Shown in pieces: positions 16,847-52,846 of a DNA stretch of 64,000 nucleotides. Position 1 is the stretch's first letter. Every line of letters starts with the position of its first letter. The notes below the pieces were generated by a model. That model was not told where the DNA came from, made no database searches, and saw only the letters and a program-made list of their open reading frames with translations. The stretch lies in assembly GCF_053078305.1 (NCBI RefSeq), contig NZ_CP166879.1, one strand, 5' to 3'. The position numbers were made by a program, and so were the translations under genes.

Positions 16847-16851
16847 ATAAT

Positions 16852-16878
16852 GCGGGCCGACATTTCTCGTCGGCCCGC
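16852..16878. terminator. bidirectional hairpin between convergent pdeF and ppx
   Basis: gcgggccgac (16852..16861) / gtcggcccgc (16869..16878) perfect 10-bp stem, 7-nt loop. Confidence 0.55.
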
Positions 16879-16884
16879 AAAGCA

Positions 16885-44722: not shown

Positions 44723-45757
44723 ATGGCTTACTCTGTTCAAAAGTCGCGCCTGGCAAAGGTTGCGGGTGTTTCGCTTGTTTTATTACTCGCTGCCTGTAGT
44801 TCTGACTCACGCTATAAGCGTCAGGTCAGTGGTGATGAAGCCTACCTGGAAGCGGCACCGCTTGCGGAGCTTCATGCCCCGGCTGGAATGATTTTGCCGG
44901 TGACCTCCGGTGATTATGCAATCCCGGTGACCAACGGTAGTGGTGCTGTCGGTAAGGCGCTGGACATTCGTCCACCAGCCCAGCCGCTGGCACTGGTTTC
45001 TGGCGCGCGTACCCAGTTCACGGGCGATACCGCTTCATTGCTGGTGGAAAATGGTCGTGGCAATACTCTGTGGCCGCAGGTGGTTAGCGTGCTGCAGGCG
45101 AAAAACTACACCATCACCCAACGTGATGATGCCGGTCAGACACTGACCACCGATTGGGTACAATGGAACCGTCTGGACGAAGACGAGCAGTATCGTGGTC
45201 GTTATCAAATCTCTGTTAAGCCGCAGGGTTATCAGCAGGCGGTTACGGTTAAACTGCTGAACCTGGAACAGGCGGGCAAACCGGTTGCAGACGCGGCTTC
45301 CATGCAGCGTTACAGCACGGAGATGATGAACGTTATTTCCGCTGGTCTGGATAAATCTGCCACTGACGCCGCGAACGCTGCGCAAAATCGTGCCTCCACC
45401 ACTATGGACGTACAAAGTGCAGCTGATGACACCGGTTTACCAATGCTGGTCGTACGCGGGCCGTTCAATGTGGTTTGGCAACGTCTGCCAGCGGCGCTGG
45501 AAAAAGTGGGCATGAAAGTGACCGACAGCACCCGTTCGCAGGGTAACATGGCCGTAACTTATAAGCCGCTGTCTGACAGCGACTGGCAGGAACTGGGCGC
45601 GAGCGATCCAGGCCTGGCATCCGGTGACTATAAACTGCAGGTTGGTGATTTAGATAACCGCAGCAGCCTACAGTTCATCGATCCGAAAGGTCATACTCTG
45701 ACTCAGAGTCAGAACGACGCGCTGGTAGCTGTCTTCCAGGCTGCGTTTAGCAAGTAA
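44723..45757 (+). CDS. bamC: BamC (NlpB), outer-membrane protein assembly lipoprotein
   Basis: 344 aa from ATG 44723, lipobox LLAACSS. Confidence 0.95.
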
Positions 45758-45762
45758 AAATA

Positions 45763-45790
45763 CAGGGCTGGAATCATCCGGCCCTTTTTT
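45763..45790 (+). terminator. rho-independent terminator after bamC
   Basis: cagggctgg aatcat ccggccct followed by T6. Confidence 0.65.
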
Positions 45791-45800
45791 CTGATATGAC

Positions 45801-45816
45801 ACGCAAACGTGTGCGT
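45801..45816 (+). promoter_or_regulatory. PurR operator (pur box) upstream of purC
   Basis: ACGCAAACGTGTGCGT, 14/16 palindromic match to the pur-box consensus. Confidence 0.7.
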
Positions 45817-45869
45817 CGGCAGGAAAACGCGATTTTAGCGGTAATTCGCACGAAATTTGTTTGTCGGAC

Positions 45870-45906
<37 letters not shown>

Positions 45907-45969
45907 ACATCCGGCACACCAGACAGCAAAAGATTTTAAAACGTTAATTCACACCCAGGAGTGATAAAG

Positions 45970-46683
45970 ATGCAAAAGCAAGCTGAGTTGTATCGTGGTA
46001 AAGCGAAAACCGTATACAGCACGGAAAACCCGGACCTGTTGGTGCTCGAATTCCGCAATGATACGTCAGCAGGGGATGGCGCGCGCATTGAGCAGTTTGA
46101 TCGCAAAGGTATGGTGAACAACAAGTTCAACTACTTCATTATGAGCAAACTGGCTGAAGCGGGTATCCCGACTCAAATGGAGCGTCTGCTCTCCGATACC
46201 GAATGTCTGGTGAAAAAGCTGGATATGGTACCGGTTGAGTGTGTCGTGCGTAACCGTGCTGCAGGCTCTCTGGTGAAACGTCTTGGAATCGAAGAAGGTA
46301 TTGAGCTGAACCCGCCGCTGTTCGATCTGTTTCTGAAAAACGACGCCATGCACGATCCGATGGTCAACGAATCTTACTGCGAAACCTTTGGCTGGGTAAG
46401 CAAAGAGAACCTGGCGCGTATGAAAGAGCTGACCTACAAAGCGAACGACGTGCTGAAAAAACTGTTCGATGATGCTGGTCTGATTCTGGTCGACTTCAAG
46501 CTGGAATTTGGTCTGTACAAAGGCGAAGTGGTACTGGGTGATGAGTTCTCCCCGGACGGTAGCCGCCTGTGGGACAAAGAAACGCTGGAGAAAATGGACA
46601 AAGACCGTTTCCGCCAGAGCCTCGGTGGCCTGATCGAAGCCTATGAAGCCGTCGCCCGCCGCCTGGGTGTACAGCTGGACTGA
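45970..46683 (+). CDS. purC: SAICAR synthetase
   Basis: 237 aa from ATG 45970 ([17 protein letters not shown]...). Confidence 0.96.
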
Positions 46684-46699
46684 TTTTTCTGTTCATCAT

Positions 46700-46724
46700 C
46701 TTGCCGTGCTGCTGGCACGGCAAG
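46700..46724. other. perfect 10-bp palindrome just downstream of purC
   Basis: cttgccgtgc tgctg gcacggcaag; no adjacent U-tract on either strand. Confidence 0.4.
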
Positions 46725-46850
46725 ACAACCATTCTCGTAAGATGTGCATTGAACGCTCATTCCTCCGCCATTTCATCCCGCTTTCCTGTGGTAATCTTCC
46801 TCTGAACCACCTACGATCATTTCTATAATGAATATATTGTTGAGGTATCT

Positions 46851-47714
46851 ATGCGTTGGCAAGGGCGACGTGAAAGTGACAATGTTGAAGACAGGCGCAA
46901 TAGCTCCGGTGGTCCGTCAATGGGCGGTCCCGGTTTCCGTCTGCCGAGCGGTAAAGGCGGGCTGATTTTACTGATAGTCGTGTTGGTTGCAGGCTACTAT
47001 GGCGTTGATTTAACCGGGTTGATGACCGGGCAGCCGGTTTCTCAACAGCAATCAACGCGGTCAATTAGCCCAAATGAAGACGAAGCCGCAAAATTCACCT
47101 CGGTGATTCTGGCAACCACGGAAGACACCTGGGGACAACAGTTCGAGAAGATGGGTAAGACCTATCAGCAACCGAAGCTGGTCATGTACCGTGGAATGAC
47201 GCGTACCGGATGCGGGGCGGGCCAGTCCATAATGGGGCCGTTCTATTGCCCGGCGGATGGCACGGTTTATATCGATCTCTCCTTCTATGATGACATGAAA
47301 GACAAACTTGGCGCGGATGGCGATTTTGCCCAGGGGTACGTTATCGCCCATGAAGTCGGTCATCATGTGCAGAAACTGTTAGGCATCGAGCCGAAAGTTC
47401 GTCAACTGCAACAAAACGCGACGCAGGCGGAAGTGAACCGCTTATCTGTGCGTATGGAACTCCAGGCCGACTGTTTTGCCGGTGTCTGGGGGCATAGTAT
47501 GCAGCAGCAAGGCGTTCTGGAAACCGGCGATCTGGAAGAGGCGCTGAACGCGGCGCAGGCCATCGGCGATGACCGTTTACAACAGCAAAGTCAGGGGCGA
47601 GTAGTACCAGACAGTTTCACTCATGGCACTTCTCAGCAACGCTACAGCTGGTTTAAACGTGGTTTCGACAGCGGCGATCCGGCACAATGCAATACTTTTG
47701 GTAAAAGCATTTAA
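46851..47714 (+). CDS. ypfJ: YpfJ, putative zinc metallopeptidase-family protein
   Basis: 287 aa, N-terminal TM segment, HEVGHH zinc motif. Confidence 0.9.
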
Positions 47715-52812: not shown

Positions 52813-52846
52813 AAAAAGGCGACACATTAGCATGTCGCCTTTTTTA
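52813..52846. terminator. bidirectional terminator between ypfM and acrD
   Basis: aaaaggcgacac attagc atgtcgcctttttt. Confidence 0.6.

Follow-up and report, generated by a model that had tools for sequence, protein, structure and literature searches.

The window analysed here, a stretch of 64,000 nt, holds the dapA-bamC-purC-ypfJ-tmcA region of E. coli on its + strand, in which purC and ypfJ were identified from the RefSeq annotation of E. coli DNA with an identical or near-identical sequence. The two genes and the interval between them contain the following features, in order along the + strand.

45970-46683, + strand: purC coding sequence, 237 aa, with its stop codon TGA at 46681-46683 (RefSeq annotation of matching E. 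coli DNA)
46684-46698, + strand: pyrimidine-rich spacer from the stop codon to the stem, TTTTTCTGTTCATCA (sequence; 1 of 15 positions variable in eight sampled E. coli alleles)
46699-46709, + strand: 5' arm of the hairpin, TCTTGCCGTGC (sequence and fold; invariant in the eight sampled E. coli alleles)
46710-46714, + strand: hairpin loop TGCTG, which is AGCTG (K-12) or TACTG in other alleles (allele alignment)
46715-46725, + strand: 3' arm of the hairpin, GCACGGCAAGA (sequence, fold and allele comparison)
46726-46747, + strand: hypervariable patch directly 3' of the stem (8 of 22 positions variable in the eight E. coli alleles)
46727-46731, + strand: published 3' ends of purC mRNA (transferred from MG1655 coordinates)
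46747-46824, + strand: C-rich, G-poor tract of 78 nt (C 28, G 9), a candidate rut region (composition)
46782-46796, + strand: conserved motif TTTCCTGTGGTAATC, read as the extended -10 (TG-n-GGTAAT) of a predicted ypfJ promoter (Enterobacteriaceae loci)
46851-47714, + strand: ypfJ coding sequence, downstream of purC in the same orientation and entered by read-through transcripts (RefSeq annotation; SMRT-Cappable-seq)

An initial annotation of this DNA had drawn attention to a perfect 10-bp palindrome with a TGCTG loop immediately after purC. Reading the sequence places it at exactly 46700-46724, its first base being the 17th past the purC stop codon as that annotation stated. The pairing is indeed perfect, but the length was understated, as the Watson-Crick palindrome comprises 11+11 bp (TCTTGCCGTGC/GCACGGCAAGA, 46699-46725) and begins 16 nt past the stop codon. 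In RNA, a closing U.G pair extends the stem to 12 pairs around a 3-nt loop. The resulting stem-loop is GC-rich and energetically stable, with a folding free energy of -20.6 kcal/mol (z = -5.6) that was equalled in 0 of 200 shuffles. The same annotation noted that neither strand carries a U-run, and this holds for both the + strand tail (CAACCATT, 2 T in 8) and the - strand tail (TGATGAAC). The 3' tail of the hairpin reads CAACCAUU in the window and CAACCGCU in K-12, with 2 and 1 T in 8 respectively, and a U-rich tract of 7-8 nt right after the stem was found in neither. A terminator scan made no call at the purC palindrome and picked up the canonical bamC terminator at 45764-45785, and an Rfam scan of 45500-47200 with E up to 10 gave no match at 46684-46850. 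The palindrome is more than chance would give: its pattern occurs once in the 64-kb window even when three mismatches are allowed and is present in 0 of 100 shuffles, and the window contains three perfect hairpins of at least 11 bp where dinucleotide shuffles predict 0.17.

The purC mRNA has been mapped in published K-12 data, which can be placed on the window since the alleles align without gaps. The purC coding sequence occupies 2596905-2597618 on the minus strand of MG1655 and the hairpin 2596889-2596863, such that 2596861 corresponds to 46727 and 2596857-2596859 to 46729-46731. In SMRT-Cappable-seq data from cells grown in M9, the purC transcript runs from a transcription start (TSS) at 2597781 to a termination site (TTS) at 2596861, which is labelled 'novelTTS' and has purC (b2476) as its sole fully covered gene (PMC6131387). 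Among the 88 reads from this start, 58 end at the TTS, 19 pass it and 8 end within the next 50 bp; the 19 that pass extend by a median of 1077 nt, and the supplement of that study contains purC-ypfJ and dapA-bamC-purC-ypfJ read-through variants (PMC6131387). The TRS resource, built from RNAtag-seq and term-seq of MG1655 in LB and minimal medium, places a 'Primary purC' terminus within 2596855-2596865 (peak 2596857-2596859), shows the same hairpin with an energy of -20.1 kcal/mol and puts the 3' UTR at 48 nt (PMC10687069). Together the mapped ends yield a purC 3' UTR of ~44-48 nt. Mapping these ends was the check that the initial annotation had proposed, with read-through and no 3' end at the palindrome as the result that would have spoken against it. 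In both SMRT-Cappable-seq and TRS the ends sit 2-6 nt past the stem, with 58 of the 88 reads stopping here and 19 reading through. Thus, in K-12 the majority of transcripts from the purC promoter stop 2-6 nt past the stem, and about one in five reads through into ypfJ.

The purC 3'-end hairpin is therefore already catalogued, in that it is visible at this position in published 3'-end maps. Its coverage varies between resources, as the curated Term-seq 3' ends of Adams et al. 2021 include the bamC terminator and none in purC-ypfJ (PMC7815308). TERMITe is without a purC entry, and text searches pairing purC with ypfJ, tmcA, bicyclomycin or vapBC returned nothing relevant. The regions of Rho termination defined with bicyclomycin by Adams et al. 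2021 likewise include none in purC-ypfJ (PMC7815308). That experiment was made in LB, where purC is expected to be repressed by PurR, and it has little power at this locus.

The initial annotation had also suggested looking for further copies of the palindrome. A search of 5426 complete E. coli genomes with 79-nt and 30-nt queries found it at exactly one place per genome in 3805 of them. No copies were found on true plasmids; two matching records are labelled as plasmids and are probably mislabelled chromosomes, since at 4.9 Mb they are of chromosome size. Across the 3805 genomes, a 30-mer containing the hairpin is identical in 1653 and carries one mismatch in 2148 and two in 4, which places 3801 within one mismatch. 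A metagenome scan for the two arms returned 88 stretches, and the matches examined all lie behind an Escherichia purC except for two. These two, on environmental contigs L092 (103-129) and L096 (2663-2689), have the same 10-nt arms (TCTTGCCGTG/CACGGCAAGA) around other loops and within unrelated flanks, and we take them as probable coincidence.

To describe variation at the site, eight E. coli alleles spanning the identity range of the 79-nt search were aligned together with E. albertii. In the eight E. coli alleles the 22 arm positions are all invariant, and variation affects 2 of the 5 loop positions, 8 of the 22 nt that follow the stem and 2 of the 103 nt that make up the rest of the spacer. 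The difference between the arms (0/22) and the loop plus 3' flank (10/27) gives a Fisher p of 0.001, which is illustrative as the alleles are not independent. All sampled alleles with a single mismatch differ in the loop (AGCTG or TACTG versus TGCTG), and NCTC9066, the sole two-mismatch genome read, combines the K-12 loop with a G-to-A change that opens no pair except the one closing the loop (C.A). In E. albertii, a C-to-T change at the innermost position of the 5' arm makes a U.G pair on the purC sense strand and C.A on the other strand. Since the stem does not vary within Escherichia, where 10 of 11 pairs are the same throughout, no covariation was seen there. Judged by these alleles, E. 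coli keeps the stem constant, and the hypervariability of 46726-46747 could reflect relaxed constraint or old recombination tracts.

Comparison of ~80 purC loci from Enterobacterales and more distant Gammaproteobacteria extends the picture beyond Escherichia. Most of these loci have, where ypfJ follows co-oriented, a stable hairpin 8-30 nt past the purC stop codon, with energies from -12 to -35 kcal/mol. The hairpin sequences are unrelated between genera, as illustrated by Enterobacter (GCCAAAGGATG), Citrobacter (TGAGCCGGCG), Pseudocitrobacter (CAGAGGGTG) and Phytobacter (CAAACCGAAGGG). Their tails differ as well, being U-poor (at most 4 T in 8) in Escherichia, Citrobacter, Enterobacter and relatives and forming a clear U-tract in Klebsiella sp. 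BIGb0407, Brenneria, Photorhabdus, Shimwellia, Yersinia nurmii and others. Among the 13 alignable hairpins of Enterobacter, Leclercia, Pluralibacter and Pseudocitrobacter, both sides have changed in 6 of 11 pairs, and 88% of cells are paired, compared to 40-52% when the partner column is slid. The covariation score of this set was reached by 0 of 500 shuffles, and all four of its wobble pairs are G.U on the purC sense (+) strand. These comparisons indicate that the conserved entity is a structure in the sense RNA and not the DNA sequence. With the structure kept and the sequence not, an operator-type site is ruled out, and the protein-binding palindrome offered by the initial annotation is not supported, as the arm sequence differs completely between genera while pairing is kept.

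A further allele of the purC end exists within E. coli itself. About 30% of E. coli (1621 of the 5426 complete genomes) are without the hairpin segment and appear to carry another purC-ypfJ spacer. From split BLAST matches and two genomes that were read (L002, 2179-2960, and L003), this spacer was found to contain a vapBC module: beginning 9 nt past the purC stop codon, ~36 bp (46692-46727) are replaced by ~780 bp that contain, in order, a hairpin, a promoter/operator-like region and vapB-vapC, with homology between the alleles resuming at the vapC stop codon. The hypervariable patch at 46726-46747 is also the point where homology with this allele restarts. The hairpin of the vapBC allele stands at the same place and is a different perfect 11-bp one (TTTAGCCGGAG-GGTA-CTCCGGCTAAA, -22.4 kcal/mol). 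At 72-77% identity, the vapBC part matches modules that are carried for the most part by conjugative plasmids of Escherichia, Salmonella and Shigella, and the hairpin falls outside this homology. As it resembles the purC hairpins of Citrobacter and Pseudescherichia, the vapBC-allele hairpin may predate the other. A hairpin directly following purC is thus common to the two alleles, an arrangement arguing that one is needed there. It is conceivable, if doubtful, that the 36-bp hairpin segment and the hairpin + vapBC segment are two old alternative purC ends swapped by recombination within Escherichia. On that view, the K-12-type end would be a replacement whose origin or fixation coincided with loss of the toxin-antitoxin module, and it may release E. 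coli RNA polymerase even though no U-tract follows. The hairpin/vapBC dimorphism could serve as a natural experiment on what the 3' end of a gene needs.

We interpret the palindrome as a sense-strand RNA hairpin that defines the 3' end of the purC mRNA, with a probability of about 0.9. The options of an RNA stability hairpin or a rho-dependent signal raised in the initial annotation are consistent with the mapped 3' ends, with a constant stem next to a variable loop and flank, and with the compensatory changes in other genera. How the end is made is a separate matter, for which we favor, at somewhat better than even odds, termination downstream of the hairpin followed by trimming back to the stem. 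In this model, RNA polymerase would mostly not be released at the hairpin itself, which we infer because a U-tract is lacking (1-2 U in the 8 nt past the stem). Transcription would proceed into the C-rich, G-poor spacer, where Rho would load and terminate diffusely, and PNPase and RNase II would then trim the tail back to the stem, which would block both exonucleases. The hairpin would thereby set the stability of the purC mRNA and, together with downstream termination, partly insulate the PurR-regulated purC unit from ypfJ-tmcA, which have their own promoters. Such a model explains why purC is largely, and incompletely, insulated from ypfJ-tmcA.

The contribution of Rho to this model is a reasoned guess that draws on the composition of the spacer. 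The C minus G excess of 46747-46824 is in the top 0.1% of all 78-nt windows on either strand of the 64 kb, in a tract that overlaps the ypfJ promoters and whose composition is not specific and could have another cause. In Enterobacter the spacer is not C-rich (C/G about 1.0). Across genera, the U content of the tail shows a weak anticorrelation with spacer C/G (Spearman -0.31, p 0.04, uncorrected for phylogeny), and the corresponding group comparison was not significant. With regard to the promoters, the motif TTTCYTRTGGTAATC upstream of ypfJ is conserved among Enterobacteriaceae loci, and the extended -10 at 46782-46796 lies ~8 nt upstream of the published ypfJ start at MG1655 2596784 (46804), a spacing from which it is predicted to be a ypfJ promoter. 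A second published start is at 2596763 (46825; SMRT-Cappable-seq, PMC6131387).

The main competing account of how the end is made is that the stable hairpin alone acts as a non-canonical intrinsic terminator that releases E. coli RNA polymerase at 46727-46731 with ~65-75% efficiency. In its favor, two thirds of the primary transcripts stop no more than a few nt from the stem, the following 50 bp contain few further ends, and no Rho region is reported at purC-ypfJ in the Adams 2021 list. Moreover, the equivalent hairpin carries a U-tract in other genera, which suggests that true intrinsic terminators were the origin of the site or alternate with it. Against this, the 8-nt tail contains only 1-2 U, whereas a U-rich tract of 7-8 nt is a defining module of intrinsic termination, as summarized by Dar and Sorek 2018 (PMC6061677). 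The mapped ends, 2-6 nt past the stem, are also closer than expected for release within a U-tract. Steady-state 3' ends cannot separate release from trimming, and the 8 of 88 reads ending within 50 bp downstream fit either fast trimming or release at the hairpin itself. On balance, we consider intrinsic release unlikely. A different route to the same 3' end is differential decay, in which purC and ypfJ are co-transcribed, the spacer is cleaved by an endonuclease and exonucleolytic trimming as far as the stem then leaves purC as a stable segment. Elements of this class have reportedly been described in an earlier paper. The hairpin has, by its fold, the properties of an exonuclease barrier, and purC-ypfJ and dapA-bamC-purC-ypfJ transcripts do exist. 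Read-through is nevertheless a minority (19 of 88 reads, with intact 5'-triphosphate ends) and ypfJ has its own transcription starts at 46804 and 46825, leaving differential decay rather improbable as the source of the purC end.

The remaining alternatives place the function of the palindrome in the DNA or deny it a function. A DNA-level palindrome, either the site of a dimeric regulator or a recombination or insertion target tied to the vapBC cassette, would account for the invariance of both arms in E. coli, and the 36-bp segment with the palindrome is exactly what the vapBC-bearing allele lacks. It is hard to reconcile with RNA 3' ends that map at the palindrome, with one copy per genome and none on true plasmids, with other genera that keep the hairpin without the sequence through compensatory and G.U changes, and with vapBC allele junctions that contain neither an inverted nor a direct repeat of the palindrome sequence; we therefore consider it very improbable. 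Still less credible is a chance palindrome without function. The invariance of 10 of 11 pairs within Escherichia, and hence the missing covariation there, is what such an account can draw on, but the shuffle counts given above, the conserved arms next to a hypervariable flank and the published maps in which the mRNA ends at the palindrome all contradict it. Separately, a sigma-54 promoter reading of TGGCAC (46713-46718) was rejected by inspection, as GACAA stands where a -12 TTGCW is expected.

Returning to the RNA hairpin at the purC 3' end, its closest parallel is a class of ends described by Dar and Sorek 2018, in which Rho-dependent transcripts end at steady state just past stable stem-loops without a U-tract (PMC6061677). 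In the account given there, PNPase and RNase II produce these ends by trimming, and the sequence just past them is enriched in C over G and contains rut sites (PMC6061677). The purC hairpin and this class share a stable GC-rich stem-loop directly upstream of a precise 3' end, the absence of a U-rich tail, the absence of an A-tract upstream, and C over G just downstream. Of six class features, the purC hairpin shows four, namely the stable stem-loop, the steady-state 3' end immediately past it, the lack of a U-rich tract and the C-over-G enrichment; the other two that define the class are a rise in read-through under bicyclomycin and a longer 3' tail in pnp or rnb mutants. Compared to the canonical bamC terminator at 45764-45785, the purC hairpin is similar in size and energy, likewise lies a few nt past a stop codon and has its 3' end just after the stem. 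It differs from an intrinsic terminator in having no U-tract and no call in the scan, and in that about 22% of reads pass it. Like the REP/BIME stabilizers of 3' ends, it is an extragenic palindrome downstream of a gene and able to block 3' exonucleases, whereas it is single-copy (3805 genomes) and not a dispersed repeat with a consensus. By inspection, and against what we take to be the REP consensus, it is unlike the REP-like element at 45866-45910. Finally, 'I-shaped' terminators without a U-tract have been proposed for mycobacteria, a proposal that is disputed; these resemble the purC hairpin as hairpins without a U-trail at a gene end and belong to other organisms. The purC hairpin is thus an ordinary 3'-end hairpin without a U-tract, and such hairpins have been described before. 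This result sets the 3' limit of the purC transcription unit and otherwise matters little beyond annotation, while the purC locus is a clean natural illustration of what Dar and Sorek pointed out, with hairpins persisting as the U-tract comes and goes between related genera.

Several other elements in the window were observed in the course of this analysis. A run of T6 comes after the bamC terminator at 45764-45785, whose position agrees with a published 3' end at MG1655 2597797/8. The terminator lies directly upstream of the purC transcription start (2597781, equal to 45807), which in turn falls inside a sequence that we take to be a PurR box (acgcaaacgtgtgcgt, 45801-45816). With the purC start, in this presumed PurR box, coming right after the bamC terminator, terminator and promoter abut. 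The ~163-nt purC 5' UTR contains a REP-like palindrome at 45866-45917, which gives the only Rfam match in the vicinity of the purC hairpin, a weak one to naRNA4 that is sub-threshold at 30.9 bits versus a gathering score of 59.5. Besides the purC hairpin, the perfect hairpins of at least 11 bp are found at 16851-16879 (TGCGGGCCGAC...GTCGGCCCGCA) and at 52813-52844 (AAAAAGGCGACA...TGTCGCCTTTTT). The latter has A5 and T5 flanks and looks like a bidirectional terminator, and the Adams list gives its K-12 version for a 3' end at MG1655 2590726 (PMC7815308).
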